Assembly (NCBI GenBank): GCA_041649135.1
Contig: JBAZNQ010000001.1
Span: 32,559 to 96,558 of the forward strand
Direction of reading: 5' to 3'
From: Patescibacteria group bacterium
Lineage (GTDB): Bacteria; Patescibacteriota; Kazan-3B-28
Length of the DNA stretch: 64,000 nucleotides
Position 1 is the first letter of the stretch, and the number at the start of each line of letters is the position of its first letter. Under the pieces are notes generated by a model, which saw only the letters and a list, made by a program, of their open reading frames with translations, was not told the DNA's origin and did no database searches. Shown piece after piece: positions 34,634 through 51,729 of this stretch. The position numbers were made by a program, and so were the translations under genes.

Positions 34634-34700
34634 ATTAATTTAATAACCAAATATCTTCCCTAATTATTAACTGTTCACTCTTAACTTTTCACTAATTATC

Positions 34701-35549
34701 ATGTCCGTCAGAACACTCAAACCTAATACTTCTGCCCAGCGCAAAATGCAGTACATTCTGTATCGGGATGTGCTGACCCAAGGCGCCAAGCCGGTCAAAA
34801 GTTTACTGAAAGGTAGAAATCGGACGGATGTTCGGAACAATCGTGGTGTAAAAACCATGACTGGTCGCGGTGGTGGCGCCAAGCGGTCCTATCGCATGGT
34901 AGACCTCCATCAGAAGAGATTTGAAATTCCGGCTACTGTTCAAAGCATTCAATACGATCCTAATCGGACTACCTTTATTGCTCACATTACTTTTATTGAC
35001 GGTGTTCACGCCTACATTCTGGCTCCCGAGGGGCTCAAGGTAGGGGATAAGGTTGTCTCTGGTATCAACACCAAGGTTAAGCTCGGCAACCGACTCCAGT
35101 TGAAAAATATTCCAGCTGGTACCACCATTCACAATATCGAGTTGGTACCCAACAAAGGCGGTCAAATTGCTCGCTCTGCCGGTTCATCTGCCTTGCTTAT
35201 GAGTTTTGACGCTGGGTTTGCTCTCCTCAAAATGCCATCTGGTGAAATTCGCCGGGTTCCGGAAACTGGTTTTGCCAGCATTGGTTCCTTGTCCAACCCC
35301 GATCATATGAATATCAGAATTTCTAAAGCCGGTCGCACCCGGAAAATGGGACTTCGTCCTACTACCCGCGGTAAAGCCAAAAACCCAGTTGATCACCCGC
35401 ATGGTGGTGGTGAAGGTAATACTTCTATCGGTTTGAAGAAACCAAAGACCAAAACTGGTCGTCCCGCCCTTGGCTTTAAGACCCGTAATCGCAAAAAACC
35501 AAGTAGCAAGTTTATTGTTAAACCAAGAGCAAAAAAACATAAAAAATAA
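34701..35549 (+). CDS. rplB: 50S ribosomal protein L2
   Basis: HPHGGGEG motif. Confidence 0.97.
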   Translation: MSVRTLKPNTSAQRKMQYILYRDVLTQGAKPVKSLLKGRNRTDVRNNRGVKTMTGRGGGAKRSYRMVDLHQKRFEIPATVQSIQYDPNRTTFIAHITFIDGVHAYILAPEGLKVGDKVVSGINTKVKLGNRLQLKNIPAGTTIHNIELVPNKGGQIARSAGSSALLMSFDAGFALLKMPSGEIRRVPETGFASIGSLSNPDHMNIRISKAGRTRKMGLRPTTRGKAKNPVDHPHGGGEGNTSIGLKKPKTKTGRPALGFKTRNRKKPSSKFIVKPRAKKHKK

Positions 35550-35658
35550 TAAATTAAGTTAATAATTAATAATTAACGGTGAATAATTAGGGAATAAAAT
35601 ATATCAATCGTCGCTTGCGACACCAAAACTATTCACTTTTAACTTTTCACTATCTCTT

Positions 35659-36018
35659 ATGTCACGTTCAAGCAAAAAAGGACCATACATCGACGAACGC
35701 CTAATGAAAAAGGTGCTCGCCGCCAAGGATTCCGGTAGCAAGTCGGTCATTAAGACTTGGTCACGTAGTTGTTCTATCACTCCGGAAATGGTTGGTTTGA
35801 CCATCGGTGTCCATAACGGTAAAGACCATATTCCGGTTTACATTCAGGAAGCCATGGTTGGACATAAGTTGGGTGAGTTTTCCTTGACCCGTAAATTCCG
35901 TAGCCACGGCGGTAAGATGGCTAAAGAACAAGCCAAGGCTGCTACCGCTCCGGCCGCTCCAGCTGCTACTCCAGCCGCCAAGCCAGCCGCTAAAAGCAAA
36001 GGCGGTAAGAAAAAATAA
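35659..36018 (+). CDS. rpsS: 30S ribosomal protein S19 with Ala/Pro/Lys-rich C-terminal extension
   Basis: S19 core plus the tail [32 protein letters not shown]. Confidence 0.93.
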
Positions 36019-36021
36019 ATC

Positions 36022-36540
36022 ATGGAAACTAAAGCCACCGCAAAATTCACTCGGATTAGCCCGAAAAAAGCCCAACCTATGGTGAAGGCTTTGCGTGGGG
36101 CAACTGTTACTGATGCGATGGCTGAACTGAAATATCATTCCAGTAAAACGGCTCGAATTCTTTACAAGTTGATTAAATCGGCCACTAATAATGCCATTAA
36201 CAACTATAATTTAAAAGAAACTAATCTTCGGGTTAAAACGCTGACTGTTGATACCGGCCCAACTATGAAACGGTATTGGTTCCGTTCCCATGGTTCCGCC
36301 GACCCATTATTGAAGCGGAGTAGCCATTTTGCGGTTGTCTTGGAAGAAATTAAGCCAACCCTGATCAAAAAGAAAGTCGAAGCGCCTAAATCGATCACTA
36401 CCACATCAGCTCCTTCTAGTACTGCCGCCGAAACTGCTGTTACCCCAACGACTGATCTAGCGCCTAAATCGAAATTACCAAAACCCAAATTGACTAAAGG
36501 ATTAAAGCAAGTATTTACTCGTCGAACTACAAATAAATAA
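36022..36540 (+). CDS. rplV: 50S ribosomal protein L22 with ~55-aa low-complexity C-terminal extension
   Basis: 172 aa. Confidence 0.92.
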   Translation: METKATAKFTRISPKKAQPMVKALRGATVTDAMAELKYHSSKTARILYKLIKSATNNAINNYNLKETNLRVKTLTVDTGPTMKRYWFRSHGSADPLLKRSSHFAVVLEEIKPTLIKKKVEAPKSITTTSAPSSTAAETAVTPTTDLAPKSKLPKPKLTKGLKQVFTRRTTNK

Positions 36541-36630
36541 AAACAAGTAAATTCGAAGCACGAAATCCGAAATACTAAAAACGTTCAGAAAATTATAATT
36601 TAGAAATTAGAATTTAGAAATTAACCTGTT

Positions 36631-37302
36631 ATGGGACAAAAGATTCATCCACATTTATTCAGACTCGGTGTCACTTCCAAGTGGAAGGCGCGTTGGTTTG
36701 ACAGCAAAAACTACGCCAAGTTTTTATTGGAAGATTACAAAATTCGTCAGCTAGTCAACGCCAAATTAAAACGGGCAGCTAATGATTTGGAAATTGAACG
36801 GGTGGGTAGTGATATGAATTTAGTAATTCTCACTTCTCGTCCGGGTGTGATTATCGGCCGAGGTGGCGCCGGCGTTGAAGACTTAAAGCAAGCAGTCAAG
36901 AAATTAACTACTGCGACCAACGTTAATATCAATATTCAAGAGATCCATGACCCAGAAACTTCTGCTTCAGTCATCGCCAATAATATTGTTGAACAGATTG
37001 AAAAAAGAATTCCTTTCCGTCGAGCCATTAAACAATCAATTGAAGCTGCTCGTCAGGCCAAAGCCGAAGGTGTTCGGATCGTCATTGCTGGTCGGTTAAA
37101 TGGTGCGGAAATTGCTCGTCGGGAAGTCTTTGGCTTCGGTAAGGTACCATTACATACTATTAAGCGGTTCATTGATTATTCCTTTAAAACTGCCTACACC
37201 ACTTATGGCACGATCGGCGTTAAGGTTTGGGTGTTATTGCCATCAGTAAAAGAAGACGAAACCAATGACCAGCCACAATCAGCAGCTCATAACTCTTTAT
37301 AA
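36631..37302 (+). CDS. rpsC: 30S ribosomal protein S3
   Basis: 223 aa; KH domain. Confidence 0.95.
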   Translation: MGQKIHPHLFRLGVTSKWKARWFDSKNYAKFLLEDYKIRQLVNAKLKRAANDLEIERVGSDMNLVILTSRPGVIIGRGGAGVEDLKQAVKKLTTATNVNINIQEIHDPETSASVIANNIVEQIEKRIPFRRAIKQSIEAARQAKAEGVRIVIAGRLNGAEIARREVFGFGKVPLHTIKRFIDYSFKTAYTTYGTIGVKVWVLLPSVKEDETNDQPQSAAHNSL

Positions 37303-37364
37303 ATTTCCCACTACTTATCATTTTTCACTTTTAACTCTTCACTCTTAACTATTCACTATTCACT

Positions 37365-37772
37365 ATGTTAATCCCCAGAAAAGTAAAATATCGCAAGCAG
37401 CATCGAGGCAAAATGGGTGGCGTCGCCACTCGGGGGAGTGCTATTGCTTTTGGTAAATTCGGTCTCAAATCTCTGGAGGCGCATTGGATTACTGCCCGCC
37501 AGATCGAAGCCGCTCGTCGAGCTATTACCCACTTTATTAAACGTGAAGGCAAAGTCTGGATTCGGATCTTCCCGCATCAATCGGTTACCTCTACTCCCAA
37601 CGAAACCCGTATGGGTGGCGGTAAGGGGGCAGTCAGCCATTATGTTGCTACCATCAAACCAGGCACGATCTTATTTGAAATGGATGGAGTGCCGGAAGCA
37701 GTTGCCGAAAAGGCACTCAATCTGGCTGGCCACAAATTACCGATCAAAACTAAGTTTGTAACTAAGGTTTAA
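37365..37772 (+). CDS. rplP: 50S ribosomal protein L16
   Basis: [15 protein letters not shown]. Confidence 0.95.
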
Positions 37773-37774
37773 TT

Positions 37775-37999
37775 ATGACAAAGACGAGTACCACACTAAT
37801 CGATTACCGTAAACTTGCGTTGAAGGATTTGGTTAAGCAAATCGATGAGACCCAGTTGAAGCTGCAGGAACTGCGCAATCAATTGACCATCGGTAAGCTA
37901 AAAAGTTATAACCAAATTCACGACTTAAGACGGTCAATCGCTCAAATGGAAACCGTTCGGAATGAAAAAATTATGTTGGAGGCAATCTCTCATGGATAA
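37775..37999 (+). CDS. rpmC: 50S ribosomal protein L29
   Basis: 74 aa. Confidence 0.9.
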   Translation: MTKTSTTLIDYRKLALKDLVKQIDETQLKLQELRNQLTIGKLKSYNQIHDLRRSIAQMETVRNEKIMLEAISHG

Positions 38000-38255
38000 A
38001 ATTAGGCAACAAAAAACCGGTCAAGCTATTTCCCGAGCTGGTCATCAAACGGTGATCGTTCGGGTGGATACTTACATTGCTCACCCACTCTACAAAAAGC
38101 GGGTTCGCAAAACCAAGCGGTTTGCCGTCCACGATGTCGATAACAAAGTTCAGATCGGTGATGCCGTGATTATTGGCGAAACTCGTCCGATCAGCAAAAC
38201 CAAGCATTGGGAAGTAATCGAAATTCTGTCAACTAAACCTAATACCACCATATGA
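37992..38255 (+). CDS. rpsQ: 30S ribosomal protein S17 (start at internal ATG 37992, overlapping the rpmC stop)
   Basis: [25 protein letters not shown]. Confidence 0.9.
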
Positions 38256-38620
38256 TCCAAGAAGGAACTAATTTAAAAGTGGCTGACAACACCGGCGCCA
38301 AGCGGGTTCGTTGTTTCAAAGTCTTAGGCGGTTCCCGTCGTCGCTATGCTGGCTTAGGCGATATTATTGTTTGTGCTGTCAAAGAAGCCTCTGCTACTGG
38401 TGTCGTCAAAAAGAAGGACGTTGTCAAAGCCGTGATCATTCGGGTGAGAAAGTCAGTTCGACGTTCCGACGGTAGCTACATTCGGTTTGATGACAATGCT
38501 GTCATTATCGTTGACGCCCAAAAGCAACCCCGAGGGACTCGAGTTTTTGGACCGGTTGCCCGCGAGTTGCGCGATAAAAACTTTATGAAAATTATCTCAC
38601 TAGCTCCAGAGGTCTTATAA
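38252..38620 (+). CDS. rplN: 50S ribosomal protein L14
   Basis: [17 protein letters not shown]. Confidence 0.95.
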
Positions 38621-38652
38621 CATTCCACCATTAAGCAAATTCGATCAACAAA

Positions 38653-38976
38653 ATGAAATTACGAAAAGGCGACAAAGTATTAGTAATCAAAGGCAAAGAC
38701 CGAGGCAAGTCTAGCGCTATCGTAGTGGTTGATCCCAAAACTGCCAAGTTGAAACTTGAAGGTCTGAATGTTTATAAGCGCCATCTTCGGAAAGCGTCCC
38801 GACCGGGTGTAGCTGGTGGTATCACCGAACGCATCTTGCCGATTGATGCCGCAAAAGTTATGCTGATTTGCGCTAACTGCAATCAGCCAACTCGGGTTGG
38901 ATATAAGAAAATTGGTGGCAAAACTGAAAGAATCTGTAAAAAATGTCAGGCGATCATCGCTTATGCTAAAAAGTAA
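38653..38976 (+). CDS. rplX: 50S ribosomal protein L24 (KOW) with C-terminal Cys4 zinc-ribbon-like motif
   Basis: KGDKVLVIKGKDRGK, followed by CANC...CKKC. Confidence 0.9.
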   Translation: MKLRKGDKVLVIKGKDRGKSSAIVVVDPKTAKLKLEGLNVYKRHLRKASRPGVAGGITERILPIDAAKVMLICANCNQPTRVGYKKIGGKTERICKKCQAIIAYAKK

Positions 38977-39508
38977 ATATTTAAAATTAGTTCCCGAATT
39001 AAAACAGACTCTCGGCCTGAAATCGATTTCCGCTGTACCAAAACTGCAGAAAGTGGTGATTCATGTTAGTGCTGGTCGGGCGATTGGCGAACCGAAATTG
39101 ATCGAGACCGTGGTTGAAGAATTGAAAAAGATTACTGGTCAAAAGCCAGTTGTCACCAAAGCCAAGAAATCTGTTGCCGGCTTTAAACTGCGCGAAGGAG
39201 TTGAGATCGGTGTCATGGTGACACTTCGAGGAAACCGGATGTATGATTTTCTGGACAAGCTGGTTAATGTTACTTTACCTCGGGTACGCGACTTCCAAGG
39301 CCTGCCACCTCACAAAGGTTTCGACAAAAACGGTAGTTTTAACCTTGGTATCCGCGAACATATTGCTTTCCCTGAAGTTGTTTTCGAAAATGTTGAAAAA
39401 ATTCTTAGCTTACAAATTACCATTGTTACCACCGCCAAGACTCCAGCCCACACCAAAGCTCTGTTAGTCGGTCTCGGCTTCCCTTTCCAAACAGAATCCA
39501 CTAAATAA
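38963..39508 (+). CDS. rplE: 50S ribosomal protein L5 (start at ATG 38963, 14-nt overlap with rplX)
   Basis: MLKSKYLKLVPELKQTLGLKSISAVPKLQKVVIHVSAG. Confidence 0.92.
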   Translation: MLKSKYLKLVPELKQTLGLKSISAVPKLQKVVIHVSAGRAIGEPKLIETVVEELKKITGQKPVVTKAKKSVAGFKLREGVEIGVMVTLRGNRMYDFLDKLVNVTLPRVRDFQGLPPHKGFDKNGSFNLGIREHIAFPEVVFENVEKILSLQITIVTTAKTPAHTKALLVGLGFPFQTESTK

Positions 39509-39554
39509 ATCCTGATCATCTATAACTTTTCACTTATCACTATTAACTACTCAT

Positions 39555-39740
39555 ATGGCTCGTAAAGCATTAATCAACAAAGCGAATAAGAAACCCAAAT
39601 TTTCCACTCGGATCGTGCGACGGTGTTCGATTTGCGGTCGTCCTCACGGTTTCATGAGAGACTTTGGGGTTTGCCGCATCTGCTTTCGAGAATTAAGTCG
39701 TACCGGACAGCTGCCAGGAATTAAAAAAGCCAGCTGGTAA
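39555..39740 (+). CDS. rpsN: 30S ribosomal protein S14 type Z (zinc-binding)
   Basis: 61 aa; CSICGRPHG...CRIC. Confidence 0.93.
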
Positions 39741-39856
39741 AGATAATAATCTAATCAATTTATTCCAATCTCACCAATCTGACCAATCTGACCAATCAAA
39801 ATTAATCCATAACTTATTCACTTCTCATTATTCATTCTTAATTCTTAATTATCCTT

Positions 39857-40261
39857 ATGACTATTACCGATCCTATTGCTGATATGTTGACCGCTCTGCG
39901 CAATGCTGTTGCTGTGCACAAGGATATCGTCGTTGTGCCCCATTCCAAACTGCGTGAAGCTATCGCGAAATTGATCCAAGAAGAGGGTTATGTTCGTGAT
40001 GTCAGAGTCGAGACTAATCCCCAAACTAAGTTTTTAGAATTGCAGGTGGGGCTTAAATACGCTTCCAATGGTGATTCCGTGATTCAGGGTATCCGTCGGG
40101 TTAGTCATCCGGGTCAACGAATTTACAGCTCTTCTAACCGCTTGAAGAAAGTTTTGAGCGGTGTCGGAACTTCTGTCGTGTCTACTTCTCAAGGCCTAAT
40201 GACTGATCACCAAGCTCGCCAACAGGGGCTAGGCGGTGAAGTACTATTTAAGATTTGGTAA
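39857..40261 (+). CDS. rpsH: 30S ribosomal protein S8
   Basis: TDPIADMLTALRNA. Confidence 0.95.
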   Translation: MTITDPIADMLTALRNAVAVHKDIVVVPHSKLREAIAKLIQEEGYVRDVRVETNPQTKFLELQVGLKYASNGDSVIQGIRRVSHPGQRIYSSSNRLKKVLSGVGTSVVSTSQGLMTDHQARQQGLGGEVLFKIW

Positions 40262-40387
40262 ATCGTAAAGTTAATCATTAATAGTGAATAGTTAAGGAAA
40301 ATAATTTAACCCCCCCCAATCTCTATTCTCTAATCTCTCTTCTCTCTTCTCTCTTCTCTACTCTCTAATCTCTACTCTCTAACTCCC

Positions 40388-40939
40388 ATGTCTAAAATCG
40401 GCAAACTTCCAATTGAGGTCCCAAACACAGTCACCATCACGTTGACCAATGATTTGGCTGTGGTTAAAGGTCCCAAGGGTGAGCTATCTGTTGCTATTCC
40501 CAAAGTGATCACTATTAAACAGGAAGGGAGTCAGCTGTTAGTTACTCGTATTAATGAAGACAAACCAACTCGAGCTCTCCACGGCTTAATTCGTTCGTTG
40601 GTTGCCAATGCCGTAGAAGGTGTTACGAATGGCTTTACTAAAACTCTGGAAATCAACGGTGTTGGTTATCGGGCTGAATTAAAAGGGCAAGTGGTCGTTT
40701 TACATCTTGGGTTCTCCCATCCGGTTGAGGTGCCGATCTTAAACGGGGTTGAAGTCAAATTGGAGAAGAACCAAGTCATTATTTCTGGTATTGATAAACA
40801 ACAGGTGGGCGAAATGGCGGCTGTCATTCGCTCCCACAAAAAACCCGAACCTTACAAAGGCAAAGGCATTAAATACATTGATGAAATTGTCCGCCGTAAA
40901 GCTGGTAAGACCGCCGCTACTGGTAAATCAGCTGGTTAA
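40388..40939 (+). CDS. rplF: 50S ribosomal protein L6
   Basis: 183 aa. Confidence 0.95.
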   Translation: MSKIGKLPIEVPNTVTITLTNDLAVVKGPKGELSVAIPKVITIKQEGSQLLVTRINEDKPTRALHGLIRSLVANAVEGVTNGFTKTLEINGVGYRAELKGQVVVLHLGFSHPVEVPILNGVEVKLEKNQVIISGIDKQQVGEMAAVIRSHKKPEPYKGKGIKYIDEIVRRKAGKTAATGKSAG

Positions 40940-40949
40940 AGCTTGAATT

Positions 40950-41300
40950 ATGTTAAAAGAAATTCGTAAAACCCAACGTCGTAAAATTTTGCGCACCAAT
41001 CGCACTCGGGTTAAAGTTGGCGTTCATGCCAATCGTCCTCGGTTGGTCATTCATCGGAGTAACAAATATATTTATGCCCAGATCGTTGATTCGGTCGGAC
41101 AGGTATTAGCCTCCGCCTCCAGCTTAAAGGCCAAGGGTAAAACTCCTGTGGAACGAGCGGCTATCGTCGGTCAGACTATCGCTGCCGCTGCCCAAGCCAA
41201 GTCAATTACTCAAGTTGCTTTCGATCGTCGCGGATACAAATATCATGGTCAAATTAAAGCCCTGGCTGATAGTGCCAGAGAGGGCGGTCTAATCTTCTAG
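40950..41300 (+). CDS. rplR: 50S ribosomal protein L18
   Basis: 116 aa; ends with a TAG stop. Confidence 0.93.
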   Translation: MLKEIRKTQRRKILRTNRTRVKVGVHANRPRLVIHRSNKYIYAQIVDSVGQVLASASSLKAKGKTPVERAAIVGQTIAAAAQAKSITQVAFDRRGYKYHGQIKALADSAREGGLIF

Positions 41301-41309
41301 TTAATTTTT

Positions 41310-41903
41310 ATGGAAAATCGTCAGAACCAAAATCAGGATAGAGGTAATCGTGGCTCCGGTCGGGGTGGCAGTCGCCGGCCAGCCCATTCGACTGCGCCAT
41401 CAGAATTCCAAGAACGAGTTCTGGAAATTAATCGGGTTACTCGAGTAGTTAAAGGTGGTAAACGGATGCGTTTTCGCGCACTCGTGGTCATTGGTGATCG
41501 GATCAGCCGAATTGCTTTCGGTTTAGGTAAAGCTAATGATGTTACTACCGCCGTTGCCAAAGCTGTCAATGAAGCCAAAAAGAATGTTCTGACAGTTAGC
41601 TTGGTCAATGGTACTCTGCCTTATAAAGTTACCAGCAGTCATAAAAGCGCCACGGTGCTCATCAAACCTACTCGGTCTGGTAGTGGGTTGATCGCTGGCG
41701 GATCAGTTCGAGTTGTGCTCGATCTGGCTGGCGTCAAAGATGCGGTGGCTAAAGTGATGGGTTCATCTAATAAAATTAGTAATGTAGTTGCTACGATCAA
41801 AGCGCTCGAATCAGTCCAATTACCAAAGGACATTTTGGCTAAGCGTGGCAAAACCGCCAAGACCAAAGCGCAACCAACTACGACCGAGGAGGATAACGCC
41901 TAA
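41310..41903 (+). CDS. rpsE: 30S ribosomal protein S5 with RG-rich N-terminal and K-rich C-terminal extensions
   Basis: 197 aa. Followed directly by rplO with no rpmD (L30) between them. Confidence 0.95.
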   Translation: MENRQNQNQDRGNRGSGRGGSRRPAHSTAPSEFQERVLEINRVTRVVKGGKRMRFRALVVIGDRISRIAFGLGKANDVTTAVAKAVNEAKKNVLTVSLVNGTLPYKVTSSHKSATVLIKPTRSGSGLIAGGSVRVVLDLAGVKDAVAKVMGSSNKISNVVATIKALESVQLPKDILAKRGKTAKTKAQPTTTEEDNA

Positions 41904-41914
41904 AGGAGTCAACT

Positions 41915-42361
41915 ATGGATCAACTACACGACATTACTGGTATTGCCAAACATCCCGATCGCAAACGGGTTGGACGCGGTTATTCGGCTGGCGGCGGTTC
42001 TACTGCCGGTCGCGGTAACAAAGGCCAAAAAGCCAGAACCGGTGGTAATGTGCCAGCCTACTTCGAAGGTGGCCAAACTCCACTCATTCGCCGGTTGGCA
42101 AAGCGAAAAGGTTTCCGGTCGCACCGCAAATTTTCAGTTGTTCGTATCAATCTGAAAGATTTGGTCAAATACACCGACGATTACAAGCTTAATATCCAAC
42201 ATTTGATCGAAACTAGTCTGATCAATCCCGATACCAAGGTTAAAATTTTAGGTGAAGGCGAACTGACTGGAAGTTTCCAAGTGCAGGCTCATTTCATTTC
42301 CGCTCAAGCTCGCGCTAAAATTGAAGCACAGGGCGGCAAGGTTGAAATAGTTAATAGTTAA
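41915..42361 (+). CDS. rplO: 50S ribosomal protein L15
   Basis: 148 aa. Confidence 0.95.
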   Translation: MDQLHDITGIAKHPDRKRVGRGYSAGGGSTAGRGNKGQKARTGGNVPAYFEGGQTPLIRRLAKRKGFRSHRKFSVVRINLKDLVKYTDDYKLNIQHLIETSLINPDTKVKILGEGELTGSFQVQAHFISAQARAKIEAQGGKVEIVNS

Positions 42362-42425
42362 CAGTTAATAGTGAATAATTAGGGAACAATATATAAATCG
42401 TCGCTAGCGACACCTGAACTTTTCA

Positions 42426-42494
42426 TCGCAGATCCTCCGACTCTGTCCTTCGTAGCTTTAGCGAAGTAGGAAGCCTTGGCGTAGGAGGACTACC
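42426..42494 (+). ncRNA. Conserved ~70-nt structured element, copy 3 of 3, in the rplO-secY spacer
   Basis: Differs from copy 2 by about one substitution. Confidence 0.4.
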
Positions 42495-42519
42495 AAAACT
42501 CTTAACTTTTCACTCTCTA

Positions 42520-43800
42520 ATGAACATTCTTGATTCAATCAGACAGATTTTCAAACACCGCGATTTACGTCTGCGGATCATTTTTACTCTGGTTGCCTTA
42601 CTGTTTGTGCGACTGATCACTCATACTCCCATGCCGGGTGTAGATTTGGATGCCTTAGCTCAAGTTTTCTCACAAAATCAATTCTTGGGCTTAATTGACC
42701 TTTTTTCCGGCGGCTCCCTTAATCGTTTCTCTATTGCCATGATGGGTGTCGCGCCCTACATCAACGCTTCCATTATTATGCAGTTGATGGGTATGGCATT
42801 ACCAAGCGTAGAAGCCCTGCAGAAAGAAGGGGATTATGGCCGGAGAAAGATCAGCCAATATACTCGCTTACTGACCGTACCCTTGGCCATCATCCAAGGT
42901 TACGGCATGATTGCTCTCCTCCAAAGTTCCGACGTGAATATTTTGGGCAATATTGGCATATTGCAGCTGGTTGGCATCTTGCTAATCGTTACCACCGGTA
43001 CTTTGCTCTTAATGTGGTTGGGTGAATTGATTTCCGAACACGGTATTGGCAATGGCATCTCGTTAATTATCTTCATTGGCATTCTGGCTAGTTTGCCCCA
43101 AAGCTTATCCAGTACGATTGCCCTGTTTGACGTTAGTCGCTTGATGGAAATTCTCATCTTTGCCATTTTGGCAGTCGCTACTATCTTCTTAGTAGTTTGG
43201 ATTACGGAAGGCCAACGCAACATCCCGATCGCTTACGCTGGTCGGGGTGGTGGCAATCGTCTTTATGCCGGCCAAAGCAATCATCTGCCACTGCGAGTGA
43301 ACCAAGCCGGTGTTATCCCGATTATTTTTGCTATTTCATTACTATTGTTCCCCGGTCTGATCGCATCTTTCTTTGCTTCCGCTCGAACTGCATGGTTGGC
43401 TTCCGCCGCTCAATGGGTGCAAACTGCTTTTCAAGATCAATGGGTCTACGGCATTTTATACTTCGTCTTTGTAGTCTTCTTTACCTACTTTTACACTTGG
43501 GTCATCTTCAAACCGGATCAGGTCGCTGAAAACATTCAAAAATCTGGTGGTTTCATCCCCGGTATTCGTCCCGGTCGTCAAACAGTTGAATTCTTGAATT
43601 TTGTTACCAACCGAATTACTTTAGCCGGTGCTATTTTCCTCGGCCTAATTGCCGTATTGCCAAATATTGTGCAGGGGATCACCAATATTCAAACTCTGAC
43701 TTTGGGTGGTACTGGTCTATTGATCGTCGTTTCGGTCGCATTGGAATTAATGCGTCAACTACGAGCCCAATTAATTATGAAGCGGTACGATGAGATCTAA
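42520..43800 (+). CDS. secY: Preprotein translocase subunit SecY
   Basis: 426 aa; 10 TM. Confidence 0.97.
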   Translation: MNILDSIRQIFKHRDLRLRIIFTLVALLFVRLITHTPMPGVDLDALAQVFSQNQFLGLIDLFSGGSLNRFSIAMMGVAPYINASIIMQLMGMALPSVEALQKEGDYGRRKISQYTRLLTVPLAIIQGYGMIALLQSSDVNILGNIGILQLVGILLIVTTGTLLLMWLGELISEHGIGNGISLIIFIGILASLPQSLSSTIALFDVSRLMEILIFAILAVATIFLVVWITEGQRNIPIAYAGRGGGNRLYAGQSNHLPLRVNQAGVIPIIFAISLLLFPGLIASFFASARTAWLASAAQWVQTAFQDQWVYGILYFVFVVFFTYFYTWVIFKPDQVAENIQKSGGFIPGIRPGRQTVEFLNFVTNRITLAGAIFLGLIAVLPNIVQGITNIQTLTLGGTGLLIVVSVALELMRQLRAQLIMKRYDEI

Positions 43801-44392
43801 TCCCTCCAAGCCAACAGCGGGCAGGCCGGACATTATTCTTTATGGCGGTCCGGGTTCAGGGAAAAGTACTCAAGCTTCGGCTTTGGTTGCCAGCCTAAAC
43901 GCTCAACATTTAAATATGGGTGGTTTATTGCGTGCCTTTGTTAAGGGCCGAAGTGCTGATGCGTTGCGTACTAAAAAGATCATGTTCGCTGGCAAGCTTG
44001 TGCCGGTCAGAATCACCAATAGTTTAGCCGAACGATTTGTTGATCAAACAAAGTCTCATCACCGGATCGTCTTCGATGGTTATCCTCGAAGTCTCGCTCA
44101 AGCCAAATTTTTAGATAAATTAATGGCCAAAACCGGTCGTTCGGTCAATCTGCTGTATATCAAATTGCCGGTCAAAGTTGCTCGCGATCGATTGATCAAA
44201 CGGGCTCGCATCGAACATCGCCCCGATGATTTAGATCCTTCTGCCTTGCGGTCACGCATTGCTGTTTTTCATCACGAAGCTAAAGATCTATTAGCGCATT
44301 ATCGCAAAACTAAACAGTTGATAATTATCGATGGCGATCAAACTGTTAAACAAGTTCAGGCCGCTATCGCCAAAGCCGTTTCCAAATGCTAA
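43790..44392 (+). CDS. adk: Adenylate kinase
   Basis: GGPGSGKSTQ P-loop. Confidence 0.9.
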   Translation: MRSNPSKPTAGRPDIILYGGPGSGKSTQASALVASLNAQHLNMGGLLRAFVKGRSADALRTKKIMFAGKLVPVRITNSLAERFVDQTKSHHRIVFDGYPRSLAQAKFLDKLMAKTGRSVNLLYIKLPVKVARDRLIKRARIEHRPDDLDPSALRSRIAVFHHEAKDLLAHYRKTKQLIIIDGDQTVKQVQAAIAKAVSKC

Positions 44393-45141
44393 CTGACGCT
44401 GAAATTATTGATATCAAAGAATGTGGCCGCCGTTTGGTGGGGATTTTAGCTGAACTGAAGGCGATGGTTAAGCCGGGTACTAATTTATTGGAGCTAGAAG
44501 CCGCCGCCAACCAATTGGCGAGTAAAGCTGGTGGCATCCCCTCATTTAAGGGCTATCATGGCTATCCAGCCGCTCTCTGTCTCTCCGTCAACAGCACCAT
44601 CGTTCATGGCATCCCCAAAGACTATGTCTTAAAAGCCGGCGATATTTTAGCTATTGATATGGGATTGTTCTACAAAGGATGGCACACCGATTCTGCCCTA
44701 ACCCTCGGAGTAGGGGATATTGCTCCCATGGCCGCTCGGCTGATGGAGGGCACCTATCTTGCCCTTCTTAGCGGTACTGATGCCGTCCGTCCCGGCAATC
44801 GGGTCCAAGATATCTCTCAAGCCATTGAAAAGGTGCTTCGGGCGCGTAATTTGACTATTTTCCGCCAGTTAGTTGGTCATGGCACTGGTCGCCAGCTCCA
44901 TCTTGACCCATTAATTCCTAATTTTGACACTGGTGAGCGAGGGCCAAAGCTGACGGCTGGCATGCTGGTGGCACTTGAGCCGATTACTGGTCTGGGCCTA
45001 GAGGATACCCGAGAATTGCCCGACGGCTGGACTATCGAGACGGTTGACGGCCAAATTGCCGCCCATTTTGAGCACACCATCCTGATTACCCCTGATGGGC
45101 CAGAGGTCATCACCCCTCTGACTGATCTGGTCAAATTCTGA
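44386..45141 (+). CDS. map: Methionine aminopeptidase type I
   Basis: 251 aa; pita-bread fold motifs. Confidence 0.93.
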   Translation: MLTDAEIIDIKECGRRLVGILAELKAMVKPGTNLLELEAAANQLASKAGGIPSFKGYHGYPAALCLSVNSTIVHGIPKDYVLKAGDILAIDMGLFYKGWHTDSALTLGVGDIAPMAARLMEGTYLALLSGTDAVRPGNRVQDISQAIEKVLRARNLTIFRQLVGHGTGRQLHLDPLIPNFDTGERGPKLTAGMLVALEPITGLGLEDTRELPDGWTIETVDGQIAAHFEHTILITPDGPEVITPLTDLVKF

Positions 45142-45297
45142 AAAACTCCTTGACGCCCACCTCGAAACATAGAATAATGTCAAAGTAATTTTCGCCCTAT
45201 CGGAATCTGATTTTTGGGCCTCCAACTGGGTATCCGGACCGTAAGTCTTCTAAGCAGGAACTATCTGGCAGATTGGGCGGATTCCATCACTTACCCT

Positions 45298-45525
45298 ATG
45301 AATACTTCATCCGGCAAACAAGTTATCGAGCTAGACGGCACCATTCGGGAAACACTTCCTAATGCTATGTTCAAAGTCGAGCTTGAGAGTGGTCACACGA
45401 TTTTGGCACATATCTCTGGCAAAATGCGAATGCACTACATCAAGATTGCCGCTGGCGATAAAGTCAAAGTCGAAATGAGTCCCTATGATATTGAAAAAGG
45501 CCGCATCACCTACCGCTATAAATAG
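45298..45525 (+). CDS. infA: Translation initiation factor IF-1 (start at internal ATG 45298)
   Basis: S1-like OB fold ([19 protein letters not shown]). Confidence 0.9.
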
Positions 45526-45653
45526 CCACTAGGGATTAGCCGCCAGCCACTAATTTTATAGCTTACCAGTCTAAATGACGAAAAGAAAAAAGCTACCGTT
45601 AGGTAGCTACCGGAACTTATCACTTTTAACTTTTAACTTTTCACTATCCCAAT

Positions 45654-45767
45654 ATGAAAGTCCGACCATCTGTAAAACCCATGTGTAAAGATTGCCGCGT
45701 GATTAAGCGGAAGGGAGTCGTGCGGGTAATTTGTAAAACCAAGAAACATAAACAACGTCAAGGCTAA
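45654..45767 (+). CDS. rpmJ: 50S ribosomal protein L36 (37 aa; not in the ORF track because below its length cutoff)
   Basis: [37 protein letters not shown]; TTCACT-repeat leader. Confidence 0.85.
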
Positions 45768-45880
45768 ATAAAGTTAATAATTAACAGTTAAAAGTGAAAA
45801 AATACGGTAAACATTAATTTAATAGCCTAAATATTTTCCTTAATTCTTAACTTTTCACTCTTAACTTTTCATTATCATCT

Positions 45881-46270
45881 ATGGTTATCCGAATTGCAGG
45901 TATCAACTTGAACAATGACCGGCGCATCGACATCGCGCTGACTGCTGTTTATGGTGTTGGTCGTCCGTTAAGTGCCGAAATTCTCAAGCAGTTGAAGATC
46001 TCACCAGCCACTCGGGTCAAGGATTTGACTGAAGCCGAGGAAAACAAGCTCCGTACATTTATTGAAAAAGAATTATTAGTTGAAGGCGATCTCCGTCGGG
46101 AGGTGGCTGTGAATATTAAGCGGCTGAAAGATTTGGGCTCCTACCGCGGCCTTCGGCACATTCGCAAACTGCCGGTTCGTGGTCAGCGTACCAAAACCAA
46201 TGCTCGCACCAAGCGTGGCAAACGCGTTACTATGGGTAGCGGCCGCAAGAAAACCGGTGACAAGACCTAA
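45881..46270 (+). CDS. rpsM: 30S ribosomal protein S13
   Basis: 129 aa. Confidence 0.95.
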
Positions 46271-46407
46271 ACACAATAAATCCGAAACTCAAAATCCGAA
46301 ATCCTAAACAAATCCCAAATCATAATTCCCGAAACTATTCGTTTAAAACATTAAAATATTTGTGCTTGTTTAGAATTTAGTGCTTAGAATTTAGAATTTA
46401 CACCGTT

Positions 46408-46881
46408 ATGTCTCGAAAAAAACGTTTACAAAAGAAAGCCGAAAAAGGACGCAAGGCCGAAGCTAAAAAGCAGGCTTATGCTACTAAAGCCGCGACTAAA
46501 GGTCGCGTCAAGAAAAAGAAAGTTAAGCGGGTTGCCGCCGAAGGTAAGGTTTATATTAAATCAACCTTCAACAATACTTTGATCACGATTTCTGATTTGG
46601 AAGGCAACGTTTTGGCTACCGGCTCCAGCGGTCGCGAAGGGTTCAAGGGTTCGAAAAAATCCACTTCCTTTGCCGCTTCCAAAGCCGCCGGTTCGGCCAT
46701 CAACAAAGCCATCACTTCTACTGGTCTGCAAAAGGCTCACATTTTTGTTCAGGGTGTTGGTACTGGTCGGGAAGCCGCCATTCGGTCCATCGCTCAAGGA
46801 GGATTGGAAATTCTGTCGATCAAGGACGTTACTCCGATCCCTCATAACGGTCCGCGTCAGCGTAAATCTCGGAGAGTTTAA
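46408..46881 (+). CDS. rpsK: 30S ribosomal protein S11 with Lys/Arg-rich N-terminal extension
   Basis: 157 aa. Confidence 0.95.
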   Translation: MSRKKRLQKKAEKGRKAEAKKQAYATKAATKGRVKKKKVKRVAAEGKVYIKSTFNNTLITISDLEGNVLATGSSGREGFKGSKKSTSFAASKAAGSAINKAITSTGLQKAHIFVQGVGTGREAAIRSIAQGGLEILSIKDVTPIPHNGPRQRKSRRV

Positions 46882-46970
46882 AAAATTTATCCCGTTAGTA
46901 ATTTGATCAACGGGATTCCCCTAAATAAATCAACCGAAAATTATACCTCATAGCACAAATTTTTAACGGA

Positions 46971-47597
46971 ATGGTTACCAACATTGGACCAAAACTTAAA
47001 CGGGTTAGACGATTGGGCGAAGAATTCGCTATGGCCGGTGATCGGTCATCTGCCGCCAAGTACGTTAAGCTCCATCGCAAACAACCCCCAGGCATGCATG
47101 GCAAGAAAGCTGGTTTCGCCAAATTAACTGGTTATGGCCAGCAGTTACGTGAAAAGCAAAAAGCTCGTGCTTTTTATAATCTGACCGAAAAACAACTGCG
47201 TCGGTATTACGGCAAAGCTAACAGCCAGCATGGTTCTACCGATGTGGCACTCTTAGTTGAGTTGGAACGCCGTTTGGATAATGTTATTTATCGGGCTGGG
47301 TGGGCTAATTCTCATCCTGCCGCTCGCCAGCTCGTCTCGCATGCTCATTTGACGGTTAATGGTCGGAAAGTCGACACTCCATCCTTCCAAGTTAAGTCTG
47401 GTGATGAGATCACGTTTGCCAGCAATCGTCCAGCGTTACAGGATGGTGTTAAGGAATTGTCCAAAGCCAATCAACCAGCCTCTTGGTTGAAAGTCGATCC
47501 GGACAAATTAACCATTCAGGTTATCAATTTGCCGGTTCGGGGAGAGATCGAGGCTCCATTTAATGAAAAAGTTATCGTTGAGTTCTATTCGAGGTAA
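46971..47597 (+). CDS. rpsD: 30S ribosomal protein S4
   Basis: 208 aa. Confidence 0.93.
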   Translation: MVTNIGPKLKRVRRLGEEFAMAGDRSSAAKYVKLHRKQPPGMHGKKAGFAKLTGYGQQLREKQKARAFYNLTEKQLRRYYGKANSQHGSTDVALLVELERRLDNVIYRAGWANSHPAARQLVSHAHLTVNGRKVDTPSFQVKSGDEITFASNRPALQDGVKELSKANQPASWLKVDPDKLTIQVINLPVRGEIEAPFNEKVIVEFYSR

Positions 47598-47619
47598 TAA
47601 TTTGTGGGGAGAATAAATT

Positions 47620-48555
47620 ATGATTGAAGACATCAACATCCCAAGTATCAAGCTCGAAGAAAAAGCGATTAATCGCGCCGTCTTCGTAGTCGAGCCGTGC
47701 TTTCCGGGTTACGGCACAACTTTAGGTAATTCCCTTCGTCGAGTTTTGTTAAGCTCTTTGCCGGGTGCGGCTATCATTGCTGTCAAAATCGCTGGTGTTG
47801 ATCACGAATTTTCGCCGGTCATCGGTGTCAAAGAAGACGCTGTTGGTATTATCTTGAATCTCAAAAAGCTTCGGTTTATTATGCACGAAGCCGGTCCAGT
47901 CGCTTTGAAATACAAGGGTGGTAAGACTGGTGAAATTACTGGTGCTGATTTAGAAATTCCTAGTACGGTTACCTTGGTCAATCCCGAACAATACATTGCC
48001 ACAGTCTCCGAAAAAACCGCTCTGGAAATGGAAATTCAGGTCGCCAAAGGTCGCGGATATATGCCCAGTGAAGCCATGGATGAAAAGAATTTCTCCATCG
48101 GTACGATTGCTGTTGATGCCGCTTTCTCTCCAGTCGTCAAAGTCATGTTTAATGTCGAGCCAACTCGTGTTGGCGAAATGATCAACTATGACAAGCTGAC
48201 AATTAATGTTTTAACCGATGGGACGATTACTCCGGAAGAGGCCGTTCGCCAAAGTGCTCAAATTTTGGCTAAGCAATTAACTGTCTTCGGTGTTGATTTA
48301 GAGAATCTGCCGATCGGTGAAACACCAACCGAAGCCGAAGCCGTCGATGTAAAAGACTTCAGTATTGATGAGGTTAATCTATCAGTTCGGACCACTAACG
48401 CATTAGTTAACAATGGTATCAAAAAAGTTAGCGAAATTCTGGAAGTTGGTGCCGAAAAACTCGGGACGATGAAAGGTCTAGGTGCAAAAGCGTTGGACGA
48501 AATTACTGACAAATTAGCCGAGCTTGGTATTAAGTTTAATAATCCCGATTCTTAA
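47620..48555 (+). CDS. rpoA: DNA-directed RNA polymerase subunit alpha
   Basis: 311 aa. Confidence 0.97.
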   Translation: MIEDINIPSIKLEEKAINRAVFVVEPCFPGYGTTLGNSLRRVLLSSLPGAAIIAVKIAGVDHEFSPVIGVKEDAVGIILNLKKLRFIMHEAGPVALKYKGGKTGEITGADLEIPSTVTLVNPEQYIATVSEKTALEMEIQVAKGRGYMPSEAMDEKNFSIGTIAVDAAFSPVVKVMFNVEPTRVGEMINYDKLTINVLTDGTITPEEAVRQSAQILAKQLTVFGVDLENLPIGETPTEAEAVDVKDFSIDEVNLSVRTTNALVNNGIKKVSEILEVGAEKLGTMKGLGAKALDEITDKLAELGIKFNNPDS

Positions 48556-48658
48556 TTCCCCCTCATTCCTCTCTATTCTCTATTCTCCTCTCTACTCTCT
48601 AACCTCTTCTCTCTACTCTTAACTTTTCACTTTTAACTATTAACTATTAACTTTTCTT

Positions 48659-49012
48659 ATGCGTCATTTGGTCAAAGGCAAAAAGCTGGGGAGAGTCAAG
48701 CGACAACGCACCGCGTTGATTCGCAATCTCTTAACTTCGCTCATTTTACATGAGCGTATCGTTACTACCGAAGCCAAGGCCAAAGCTCTTCGCCCGAAGA
48801 TCGAACGGTTAGTTACTATCGCCAAAAAGGGTAACCTAATGGCCAAACAGCAGTTGATGAAACCTCTTTACAATAACCAGATCGTAGTTAAAAAAATGTT
48901 ACAGGTTATTGCTCCCCGTTATCAGGGACGCGTTGGTGGCTATGTCCGGATTGTTCGCAAAGGAACTCGGGTCGGTGACGCCGCGCCAACTTCCGTAATC
49001 GAATTTGTATAA
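48659..49012 (+). CDS. rplQ: 50S ribosomal protein L17
   Basis: 117 aa. Confidence 0.93.
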   Translation: MRHLVKGKKLGRVKRQRTALIRNLLTSLILHERIVTTEAKAKALRPKIERLVTIAKKGNLMAKQQLMKPLYNNQIVVKKMLQVIAPRYQGRVGGYVRIVRKGTRVGDAAPTSVIEFV

Positions 49013-49017
49013 ATCAA

Positions 49018-49575
49018 ATGAAGAATTCTGATAATCAAAATAAGGAAGGGAAAACAGCGAACTTAGTTGAGCCGAAGGCTCAACTCGGCTCCACCGATGA
49101 GCGTCGAGAGGGAAGCCATGGGTTGTCATCTCGGGTGCTTCATCAAGCCACTGCCCACATGCCGAGTCACAAACTTCCAGAACGCTGGTTTTTGGTTGAT
49201 GCCAAAGACAAAGTGTTAGGTCGGTTGGCAGTAAAGATCGCCGAACTGTTGATGGGCAAAGATAATGCCATGTTCAATCAGGCGGTACAGGCGCGGACCA
49301 ACGTCGTCGTTATCAACGCAAAATACGTTAAATTAACTGGCAATAAATTGACTGGGAAAATTTATACCTCTCATTCCGGTTACCCAGGTGGTATTACCAC
49401 CAAAACTCCGGCGGATATTCTAGCTGGCAACAAACCCAACGAAGTTTTACGTCACGCCGTAGCTGGTATGTTACCCAAAAATAAATTACATAATCTTACT
49501 CTTGATCGGTTAAAAATCTACGCCGAAGACGAACATCGTCATGGTGGGCAGAACCCAATTCCGGTTAAGCTATAA
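49018..49575 (+). CDS. rplM: 50S ribosomal protein L13 (possible 47-aa N-terminal extension; alternative start ATG at 49159)
   Basis: WFLVDAKDKVLGRLA. Confidence 0.9.
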   Translation: MKNSDNQNKEGKTANLVEPKAQLGSTDERREGSHGLSSRVLHQATAHMPSHKLPERWFLVDAKDKVLGRLAVKIAELLMGKDNAMFNQAVQARTNVVVINAKYVKLTGNKLTGKIYTSHSGYPGGITTKTPADILAGNKPNEVLRHAVAGMLPKNKLHNLTLDRLKIYAEDEHRHGGQNPIPVKL

Positions 49576-49689
49576 AACTATTTCTTTAATTGTTTGATGA
49601 TTGTAATCTGGTGATTGATTATTAACCCTCTATAGTAAAATTCTTAATTGTTTGATGATTGTAATTTGGTGATTGATTATTAACCCGCT

Positions 49690-50103
49690 ATGGAAAAAAC
49701 TCTTCAACTCTCTGGTACTTATTATTACGGCGTTGGCCGTCGCAAAACCGCCTCTGCCGAGGTGCGGTTATATAAGGGTGACGGCAAAATTACCATCATC
49801 AATGGTCAGGTTGGCAGTCGCTATTTTAGCCCACAGAGTTTAGTCGAAAAAATTTATCAACCATTAGAAGCTGTCGGTTTGCGAAAAGATTTTGATATTT
49901 CTATCCAAGTCCATGGTGGCGGCATGGCGGCTCAAGCTGATGCCGCTTGTCATGGAATTGCTCGCGCGTTAGTTGCTTTTGATGCTAATCTTAAAACAGC
50001 GCTTAAAAAGACCGGATTCTTAACTCGCGATGCTCGAGCCAAAGAACGCAAGAAATTCGGTCTCAAACGAGCTCGTCGTGCACCACAGTTCTCGAAACGC
50101 TAA
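49690..50103 (+). CDS. rpsI: 30S ribosomal protein S9
   Basis: 137 aa. Confidence 0.95.
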   Translation: MEKTLQLSGTYYYGVGRRKTASAEVRLYKGDGKITIINGQVGSRYFSPQSLVEKIYQPLEAVGLRKDFDISIQVHGGGMAAQADAACHGIARALVAFDANLKTALKKTGFLTRDARAKERKKFGLKRARRAPQFSKR

Positions 50104-50204
50104 CATGCAGTTAAGGGTTAAAAGTGAAAAGTTAAAAGTTTTGGTGTCCTTCGGACCATCCTAAATAACCACTCACTATTCACCGTTCACTATTCACCAC
50201 CTCT

Positions 50205-50480
50205 ATGTTCAAAGCTATCGTCAAATTCTTACATGAAGCTCGGGTAGAACTTGCCAAAGTCACTTGGCCTACTCGTCAGGCGGCCATTAATTTGACCCTG
50301 ATCGTTATCACGGTATCAATTTTATTTACCCTCTATATCACAGTTGTTGACTACGGTTTGACTACCGGTATCAAATGGGTAACTCAACAAGCCGCCGAAC
50401 TGAAAGCTGGTAACTCAAGTGATGTTACCGCTACCCCAAGCGACATCCAAGTTACTCCTTTAACTGAACCAACTGAATAA
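50205..50480 (+). CDS. secE: Preprotein translocase subunit SecE
   Basis: 91 aa; single TM. Confidence 0.8.
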   Translation: MFKAIVKFLHEARVELAKVTWPTRQAAINLTLIVITVSILFTLYITVVDYGLTTGIKWVTQQAAELKAGNSSDVTATPSDIQVTPLTEPTE

Positions 50481-51697: not shown

Positions 51698-51729
51698 ATC
51701 TATCTATCTACTAATCTATTAATCTACTT

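Follow-up and report, generated by a model that had tools for sequence, protein, structure and literature searches.

The closest precedent for the sequences described here is the TAACTGA heptamer of the Beggiatoaceae, which forms direct repeats immediately upstream of start codons (MacGregor 2015, PMC4679880) and is also found in some Cyanobacteria and Bacteroidetes. These repeats occur inside ribosomal-protein operons (fusA, rplC, rpsD and others), are patchily distributed, with close relatives that do not have them, and fill spacers in which a canonical Shine-Dalgarno (SD) site is rare although the 16S anti-SD is normal; initiation through S1, Csp or a leaderless-like route has been proposed for them (PMC4679880). 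Heptamer repeats also adjoin start codons in Nostoc (bioRxiv 10.1101/2022.06.06.494920), and heptanucleotides are, in what PMC4679880 summarises of Mrazek et al. 2007, the commonest class of long simple sequence repeats (LSSRs) in repeat-rich prokaryotes. Here we analyse G-free heptamer leaders that end at the start codons of ribosomal-protein and other genes in a 64-kb stretch (the window) of contig JBAZNQ010000001.1, from a Patescibacterium of candidate division Kazan. We consider them probably to be the start-proximal arms of mobile, slippage-prone intergenic repeat modules, of LSSR kind and resembling MITEs (transposable elements of the miniature inverted-repeat kind) or REPINs (paired repetitive extragenic palindromes), which split formerly coupled genes; on the sequence comparisons below, they would be neither an ancestral or dedicated replacement of the ribosome-binding site nor a conserved initiation system.

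The window corresponds to about 321.7-385.7 kb of ENA contig ERZ27247363 k141_2225525 and has a GC content of about 44%. In order, it contains an rpoB-rpoC pair, the ribosomal-protein operons str, S10, spc and alpha, and secE, nusG and rpmG. Gene identities come from Pfam scans and from public gene calls on the same contig: among the leader-bearing genes, those for S12, L3, L36, S13, L17, SecE, L20, L33 and the GT4 glycosyltransferase were confirmed by Pfam, and those for L2, S19, L16, S14, S8, L6 and SecY were identified from the public calls. The best relatives by SecY carry the label Patescibacteria or candidate division Kazan (e.g., Kazan RIFCSPHIGHO2_01_FULL_44, 76% identity). For the comparison of arrays we used 80 SecY loci from other genomes; comparison loci and contigs carry L numbers, L083 being the same contig as the window.

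G-free leaders and Shine-Dalgarno pairing

On the plus strand we counted 45 G-free runs of at least 28 nt, where 13.3 were expected and the maximum in 200 block shuffles was 27, and 16 G-free runs (28-113 nt) terminated exactly at the AT of a start codon. The genes concerned are those for the GT4 glycosyltransferase, rpsL, rplC, rplB, rpsS, rplP, rpsN, rpsH, rplF, secY, rpmJ, rpsM, rplQ and rpmG, together with two non-core genes. The secE leader follows a like pattern with one G, and the minus-strand genes rplT and rpmI have like leaders when read in sense, that of rpmI with four G within its last 40 nt. Counted over all genes, 17 of 77 had no more than a single G from -40 to -1. The three-unit pattern TTMACTNTTMACTNTTMACT matched 17 times in the window with 0 matches expected from shuffles, and 15 of these matches read in sense and lay no more than about 45 nt upstream of eight starts, that of the minus-strand rpmI included. 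Every gene to which the preliminary description had assigned such a leader does carry one as described; its statement that they precede most core genes was too broad, as from rpsJ to rpmG they stand before 13 of 34 genes, and about 13 of the 34 are in tight coupling, either overlapping or with a gap of at most 17 nt. The leaders are as follows, with one canonical SD-like site for contrast.

143..186, plus strand: leader of the GT4 glycosyltransferase gene (ATG 190), a G-free array of ACTTTTC/TTCACT heptamers, from Tandem Repeats Finder (TRF), G-free runs and Pfam
1399..1459, plus strand: DUF4012 gene leader (ATG 1460), a C-free (TTGGTGAGA)n array and so a repeat leader that is not G-free, from TRF and Pfam
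26613..26671, plus strand: G-free CTATTCA/TTCACTA array ending at the rpsL start (ATG 26670)
33028..33072, plus strand: rplC leader, a G-free (CTCTCCT)n array up to the start (ATG 33071)
34623..34702, plus strand: rplB leader spacer with a single G and a TTAACTG/TTCACTC array (ATG 34701), minimum free energy (MFE) 0.0
37286..37366, plus strand: rplP leader, an 81-nt G-free run of about six TTCACTN/TTAACTN units (ATG 37365), MFE 0.0
39515..39556, plus strand: G-free leader of rpsN (ATG 39555)
41903..41914, plus strand: contrast case in the same operon, rplO, whose start has a canonical SD-like site (aaaggag) 7 nt upstream, from the anti-SD duplex
45614..45655, plus strand: G-free AACTTTT array ending at the rpmJ start (ATG 45654)
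48548..48660, plus strand: rpoA-rplQ spacer filled by a 113-nt G-free run, (CTCTCTA)n and then (ACTTTTA/TTAACTA)n, MFE 0.0
51691..51731, plus strand: G-free (AATCTATC)n leader of rpmG (ATG 51730)

The units of these leaders are diverse (TTCACTN, TTAACTN, CTCTCNT, CATCTCT and CTAATCT, with ATTCTTA in locus L213). Repeat leaders that contain G and are poor in C were found at rpsG, rpsC and rpsK, with TTTAGAA units, and at rpsI and the DUF4012 gene, with GATTGGTGA-like units; the fusA leader is a TCTATAGG-type array with both G and C. In long spacers, the ratio of starts with at most one G to those with at most one C in positions -35 to -6 was 12:2 in the window, 9:2 in L213 and 4:3 in L210, so that the G-poor bias near starts is real and not absolute. 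The public gene calls of L083 omit rpsN (near 39555) and begin rplP (near 37365) 48 nt too late, and the repeat leaders appear to mislead gene callers; an exact-protein look-up of rpsN returned no match because the gene is uncalled in the source assembly.

An RNA without G can form neither G-C nor G-U pairs and is therefore single-stranded, and as it contains no AUG, GUG or UUG, the first start codon met is the genuine one. The G-free spacers at 37303-37364, 39509-39554 and 48556-48658 all fold to an MFE of 0.0, which bears out the earlier suggestion of unstructured leaders. The same holds for the claim that no SD is present: duplexes of the canonical anti-SD with all 17 G-poor leaders came to +0.6 to +3.7 kcal/mol, that is, no pairing, in comparison with -8 to -13 kcal/mol for the SD-bearing genes of the window. 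Duplexes of -6 kcal/mol or stronger occurred at 22% of starts versus 7.7% of random positions, and textbook sites were seen at lemA, rplO, rpoA, rpsQ and an island at 55.8-59.9 kb (aaaggaggtgaataATG at 55876 on the minus strand, aaaaaggaggcaattATG at lemA, aaaggagtcaactATG at rplO). The Rfam scan found no 16S or other rRNA gene in the 64-kb window, tRNAs being the only matches at gathering score, and our literature search on SD usage in Patescibacteria yielded nothing relevant; given the canonical SDs elsewhere in the window, the anti-SD is very probably ordinary. With an ordinary anti-SD and no SD in the G-free leaders, initiation there would have to be SD-independent. That the leaders hide a disguised SD, the 16S 3' end of this lineage being altered from its canonical tail (...CACCUCCU / ...GAUCACCUCCUUUCU) to pair with the leader motif, is extremely unlikely: strong canonical SDs at correct spacing lie in the same window, at the native genes lemA, rplO, rpoA and rpsQ too, and the leader units are mutually unrelated (TTCACT, CTCTC, CTAATC), so that one complement cannot fit them all.

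The stretch at 55800-59900, with raised GC (0.52) and strong canonical SDs, may be an acquired island; it holds a 194-nt intergenic repeat (57426-57619 versus 58816-59009, 93%).

Period-7 modules and their variation among Kazan genomes

The leaders belong to a wider set of repeats. TRF detected 41 period-7 arrays in the window (19 bases/kb) with more than 25 different units, among them ACTTTTC, TTCACTA, TCTCTAT, CTCTCCT, AGAGATG, TTTAGAA, AAATCCG, AATAGTT and AAGAGAG, plus some arrays of period 8-9; the median number of period-7 arrays in the 80 other SecY loci was 0. Tandem units of 5-11 nt beyond chance, as in LSSRs, are thus present, and the intergenic autocorrelation peaks at lags 7, 14 and 21 (0.324, 0.303 and 0.277), with period 3 in coding DNA. 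The TTCACT leaders form one class among the many period-7 arrays of this genome; others stand after stop codons, beside tRNA genes, or before genes as leaders that do contain G.

An all-against-all comparison of spacers revealed dispersed module families, 84-96% identical within the window and about 45-170 nt long, many of which read [stop]-purine arm-loop-pyrimidine arm-[ATG]. Family A has an AGTGAA/AGTTAA arm followed by a TTCACT/TTAACT arm, the GA/CT family an AGAGAAT arm followed by a CATCTCT arm, and family B an AAATCC arm followed by a TTTAGAA arm; such two-arm modules are short, multi-copy and non-coding with terminal inverted repeats, as MITEs are. The inverted purine copies reported earlier after stop codons are indeed there, at about 35575, 40277, 42346-42385, 45770-45800 and 50109-50140. 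In family A and the GA/CT family the purine arm follows the stop and the G-free arm precedes the start on both DNA strands, and the minus-strand genes infC, rpmI and rplT show the same layout, so that the polarity is relative to the gene and not to replication. A bias following the replication strand was accordingly rejected, as the infC-rpmI-rplT cluster keeps the gene-relative layout. The modules and composite spacers are:

6851..6922, minus strand: rpmI-rplT module, a GA-rich arm (aagagaatagagtgtagagaatagg) and then a G-free (CATCTCT)n arm to the rplT ATG (6850); its sense hairpin is at -20 kcal/mol, z -2.6
7121..7251, minus strand: infC-rpmI family A module, a ggtgaatagtgaatagttgagg arm, loop hairpin and cctttcactattaactgttaacttttcact arm before the rpmI ATG (7120)
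27099..27202, plus strand: rpsL-rpsG family B module, an AAATCC arm and then a TTTAGAA arm before ATG 27203
35550..35658, plus strand: rplB-rpsS two-arm family A module (ATG 35659), a purine arm (gttaataattaa..ggtgaataattaggg), a loop with a small gtcgcttgcgac hairpin, and a G-free pyrimidine arm
36541..36630, plus strand: rplV-rpsC family B module, an AAATCCG-type arm and then a C-free TTTAGAA/AAATTAG array (ATG 36631)
39741..39858, plus strand: rpsN-rpsH spacer, an (CCAATCTGA)n array and then a G-free TTCACT/ATTCTTA leader (ATG 39857)
40262..40389, plus strand: rpsH-rplF spacer, a purine arm (gttaatcattaatagtgaatagttaagg) and then a 92-nt G-free (TCTCTAT)n array (ATG 40388)
42346..42521, plus strand: rplO-secY spacer, an AATAGTT/AGTGAAT purine arm, a family A loop, a nested 75-nt dispersed element (42426-42500) and a G-free arm ending at ATG 42520
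45768..45882, plus strand: rpmJ-rpsM family A two-arm module, an AAAGTTA/AAAGTGA arm and a 57-nt G-free TCTTAACTTTTCAC arm (ATG 45881)
46271..46407, plus strand: rpsM-rpsK family B module, an AAATCCG/AAATCCC arm and then a GTTTAGAATTTAG arm (ATG 46408); it matches the L33 leader of Kazan locus L210 at 77% identity over 109 nt
50104..50206, plus strand: rpsI-secE two-arm module, an AGTTAAA/AAAGTGA arm, a GC hairpin loop and a CACTATTCACC arm (ATG 50205)

At the rplO-secY spacer, the AATAGTT/AGTGAAT array (42346-42381) overlaps the last rplO codons and the stop (42359-42361), so that L15 takes its C-terminus and stop from the repeat.

The arrays are specific to particular lineages. Operon gaps in the window sum to 2250 nt with a median of 69 nt, in comparison with sums of 484-1327 nt in L001, L207, L209 and L211, and in relatives with 81-89% SecY identity the same operon genes are packed 1-5 nt apart. 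No period-7 array was found in L001 (SecY 81%, median gap 2 nt) or L209 (87%, 9 nt), one each in L207 and L208 (88-89%; median gap 4 nt in L207), and three each in L211 and L212 (76-78%; 2 nt in L211); L210 (GCA_001771185.1; 76%) has 13, with a median gap of 15 nt, and L213 (76%) has 27, with a median gap of 45 nt. Modules lie at S19/L22, S14/S8 and before L33 in L210, junctions other than those of the window, and before S19, S11, S9, S3, S8 and S13 in L213. Two families (AGTGAA.../...TTCACT and AAATCC.../...TTTAGAA) are shared with L210 and L213 at other junctions, and module copies within each of these two loci are 90-96% identical over 98-170 nt.

The modules are also hypervariable among strains. 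In strains 99.4-99.7% identical in coding sequence and flanking genes, every indel found lies in spacers. The rpsS/rplV junction holds a family B module of about 100 nt in L084 versus 3 nt in the window, the comparison of filled and empty site showing at most a possible 2-nt 'TC' duplication; L084 also has one more TTTAGAA unit (+7 nt) in the rplV-rpsC spacer and 13 nt more in the rplP leader, the rplQ leader in L216 differs by -5 nt and -7 nt with clustered substitutions, and the rpsN-rpsH spacer contains a different 82-nt module in L085. Copy number within arrays is therefore unstable between close genomes, as in LSSRs, by these steps of +7, +13, -5 and -7 nt, and the variant strain alleles stay G-poor. 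That all this is an assembly artefact of low-complexity sequence is a negligible prospect: repeats can confuse short-read assemblers, and one related contig has a run of N, but the arrays are base-for-base alike in independent ENA, JGI and Logan assemblies and similar ones occur in NCBI genomes. Identity is 100% in L086 and L215, over 2.4 and 8.3 kb, and 99.8-99.9% in L217 and L218; the exact reproduction in other assemblies (L086, L215) excludes an artefact.

Outside these genomes, a metagenome scan with TTMACTNTTMACTNTTMACT gave, among the matches listed, mostly scattered single matches from unrelated environments, and contigs with many different period-7 arrays were also among them. Rfam returned only tRNAs at gathering score and nothing at E<=0.5 in 32400-52000. 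No RAYT (REP-associated tyrosine transposase) was found in the window by tblastn. In L213 alone, a truncated Y1_Tnp lies near the operon; it scores best against the REP-associated tyrosine transposase family, with 47.6 bits, below the cutoff of 80. RAYT-like genes occur in L009 and L171 too.

RAYT-like (Y1 transposase) genes on array-rich contigs were located at 20927-21275 of L213 and at 1156-1500 and 3057-3401 of L171, where a (CTGACCA)n array abuts a RAYT-like start and a GTGAATA/ATTCACC inverted array pair lies at 8286-8369. Several other repeats were noted in the window. A 335-nt inverted repeat (15329-15641 and 16251-16662, 81% identity) composed of family B heptamer arrays flanks a DUF218 gene (15642-16250). 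The 75-nt dispersed element has copies at 32957-33031 and 42426-42500 (96% identical) and a diverged one at about 6345-6460; it is placed shortly before the G-free rplC and secY leaders, contains a GGAGGA/TCCTCC pairing, and folds no better than shuffles (z about 0 to +1). Palindromes of the GTCATTC(C/T)...GGAATCC type at 26400-26545, 5371-5403 and 51950-51969 form a second, REP-like dispersed family and resemble 'gtcattcccgcggaggcgggaatcc' copies in L210 and L213. A small hairpin, TTAACTAC-NN-AGTAGTTTTT, stands directly upstream of tRNA-Leu (11714-11733) and tRNA-Val (11921-11940), both copies being preceded by an ATTGG-type array, and a 58-nt unit is duplicated in tandem (92% identity) at 49586-49698, immediately upstream of rpsI. 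Relatives L001 and L207 share a conserved hairpin that stands upstream of rplC at about 32890-32930 (cttctgcgtcccgcc...gggaccagaag); this candidate S10-operon leader is parted here from the rplC start by inserted repeats.

Among the genes themselves, rpmD (L30) is absent between rpsE (41310-41903) and rplO (41915), as expected for Patescibacteria. Between nusG and rpmG, at 51332-51697, stands a gene whose product is a 23S rRNA intervening-sequence protein (PF05635), a bAvd-like four-helix bundle; several Kazan relatives (L207, L210, L211) do not have it at this position.

Proposed origin and possible use of the modules

Our preferred reading is that the modules proliferate in some candidate-division Kazan genomes, where they would spread by transposition or recombination, expand by slippage, and change through slippage of units, insertion or deletion of whole modules, and replacement. 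They have inserted between the stop of one gene and the start of the next in operons, the S10-spc-alpha ribosomal-protein operon among them; in array-free relatives those genes, 1-5 nt apart, presumably depend on termination-reinitiation coupling. Because the downstream essential gene must still be translated, the start-adjacent copies that persist would mostly be those with a G-free sense strand, and selection would then be the cause of the G depletion. In the predicted folds of the two-arm modules, 2-21 nt right before the AUG stay unpaired. Entry of the ribosome would be SD-independent, by binding to the open pyrimidine-rich standby region, possibly via S1, and alternatively or jointly by 70S ribosomes that continue from the upstream stop codon. 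Several points weigh against this reading. About a quarter of the repeat leaders contain G (rpsG, rpsC, rpsK, rpsI, DUF4012), so that G depletion prevails in most leaders without being a rule; the way in which the element inserts, and not selection, could also give the G-free orientation. No transposase is encoded in the 64-kb window, no clear target-site duplication was found at the polymorphic rpsS/rplV site, and the same families are kept in Kazan lineages at 76% SecY identity, a persistence that could mean use by the host. The anti-SD is deduced from the SD statistics of the window, the 16S 3' end lying outside it, and translation from the G-free leaders is assumed solely from the essentiality of the genes.

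A bolder version, to which we give a low probability, makes the modules portable 'junction cassettes', mobile elements that bring their own translation context in the form of purine-arm stops and a G-free leader, unstructured and devoid of start codons, up to the first AUG. The purine arm AGTGAATAGTTAA contains TGA, TAG and TAA, and may provide stops in three frames, with ribosomes delivered by an S1-assisted standby or by 70S scanning. If true, such a context would let the cassettes colonise the most conserved essential operon of streamlined Patescibacteria, and their hosts may have come to use them to tune ribosomal-protein stoichiometry.

The preliminary description had seen in the leaders an SD-independent initiation signal. 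Its first half stands, in that they have no SD and fold to an MFE of 0.0; a dedicated or conserved system is at odds with their absence from the closest relatives and their variation between strains. As a fuller alternative, the G-free pyrimidine repeats would be an evolved enhancer that replaces the SD and, bound by S1 or another RNA-binding protein, sets the expression of core genes. The repeats do lie flush against 16 starts, keep a gene-relative orientation on both strands, are G-poor rather than C-poor by 25:7 over three genomes, stay G-poor in variant alleles, and persist as related families in lineages 76% identical in SecY, and a like idea was proposed for the TAACTGA repeats (PMC4679880). 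We nevertheless think this unlikely, since orthologous genes in the nearest relatives are expressed without repeats, different genomes have them at different junctions, and their length and presence vary among near-identical strains; the many unrelated units run contrary to a single sequence-specific binder, some ribosomal-protein genes have G-containing arrays, and arrays also flank tRNA genes and follow stops.

Complementary arms also raise the prospect of RNA-structure elements, that is, operon-internal hairpins, either for processing (RNase III-type) or stability or for coupling; in the latter case a ribosome that ends translation of the upstream gene would melt the purine arm and free the downstream leader. 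Co-transcribed MITEs of Neisseria (Correia/NEMIS elements) are cleaved at such hairpins and offer a parallel. In about six spacers both arms are present, and the hairpins predicted for the sense RNA are modest, with energies from -12 to -31 kcal/mol and z-scores from -1.3 to -2.6; the purine arm begins at or a few nt from the stop, and at rplO overlaps it, and the heptamer of the leader arm is always complemented in the trailer arm (TTCACT/AGTGAA, CATCTCT/AGAGA, and ATTCTTA/AATGAA in L213). Most G-free leaders, on the other hand, have no partner arm in their own spacer and fold to 0.0 kcal/mol, and individual z-scores are weak. The antisense strand folds better than the mRNA in five of the six two-arm spacers (z -2.0 to -3.8 in four), which places A-C mismatches in the sense strand, the opposite of selection for an RNA hairpin; the predicted folds would fit selection against mRNA structure. 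We regard this reading as quite unlikely, although a minority of spacers may have processing hairpins. The earlier picture of each spacer folding into a long stem does not survive these counts: a long stem in every spacer was rejected, as several G-free spacers fold to 0.0.

Still less credit goes to signals at the DNA level, the arrays being promoters, terminators or transcription-factor-site arrays that divide the operon into transcription units, which we judge very unlikely. The spacers are AT-rich and have a few -10/-35-like matches inside (e.g., 34674-34702, 35559-35600, 46369-46397), and heptad repeats are reported to recruit regulators at some promoters (e.g., TTTTGAT at ctxAB). Promoter and terminator matches were at shuffle level, however: sigma-70-like promoters were not enriched (34 versus 31.3+-5.1), a weak test as the consensus may not be patescibacterial, nor were intrinsic terminators (18 versus 21.2+-4.2 in shuffles), and the hairpins are not followed by a T run. 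The units are moreover too diverse for one factor, and a period of 7 would be out of phase with the DNA helix.

Comparison with known systems

In the literature searched we found no report of start-adjacent heptamer repeats in Patescibacteria, and the window extends the phenomenon of heptamer repeats before starts from the Beggiatoaceae and Cyanobacteria to this group. A tiny, streamlined genome of the candidate phyla radiation here tolerates hypervariable repeats of 45-160 nt at more than 12 junctions of the S10-spc-alpha operon, and translation of the essential ribosomal-protein genes at these junctions would therefore have to begin with neither an SD nor tight coupling. The same junction exists with and without an array in strains more than 99% identical, which amounts to a natural experiment on SD-independent initiation. 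On the practical side, such repeats can break or mis-join metagenome-assembled genomes, and they accompany the missed rpsN and mis-started rplP of gene callers.

SD-independent initiation on unstructured leaders is known in Bacteroidetes and Cyanobacteria, and S1-dependent leaders are AU- or pyrimidine-rich. The leaders of the window resemble such leaders in having no SD, little predicted structure at the start and a probably canonical anti-SD; they differ in being recent repeat insertions at a subset of genes, C/U-rich and G-free instead of A-rich, beside genes with normal SDs. With LSSRs, and with the short tandemly repeated repetitive (STRR) heptanucleotides reportedly described in Cyanobacteria by Mazel et al. 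in 1990, the arrays share the predominance of heptamers, the intergenic position, the sporadic occurrence across taxa and the slippage-driven copy number; the LSSR/STRR surveys are not known to describe inverted two-arm modules, gene-relative polarity or G-free composition, or to cover Patescibacteria. MITEs and REP/REPIN elements (Correia/NEMIS, enterobacterial repetitive intergenic consensus or ERIC sequences, RAYT-mobilised REPINs) are likewise short, non-coding, multi-copy and intergenic with inverted arms, are polymorphic in presence among strains, and lie within operons, where they are presumably co-transcribed. Unlike them, the modules have arms that are tandem heptamer arrays of variable length, and no convincing target-site duplication or transposase was found in the window.

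The TAACTGA repeats come closest. In both systems tandem 7-nt units, in few copies and mostly forward, stand a few nt upstream of starts, and in the window heptamer repeats end at starts in one gene-relative orientation (16 G-free arrays, with the same layout on the minus strand). Canonical SD sites are rare in the TAACTGA spacers and absent from the G-poor leaders of the window, whose genome probably has a canonical anti-SD. TAACTGA itself is not the unit of the window, where TAACTGT and TAACTAT occur only as variants. The TAACTGA system has one unit, whereas the window has many, the majority class of which is fully G-free; the window differs further in its Patescibacterium host, in arrays that are often paired with a complementary post-stop arm, and in documented polymorphism at the level of strains.

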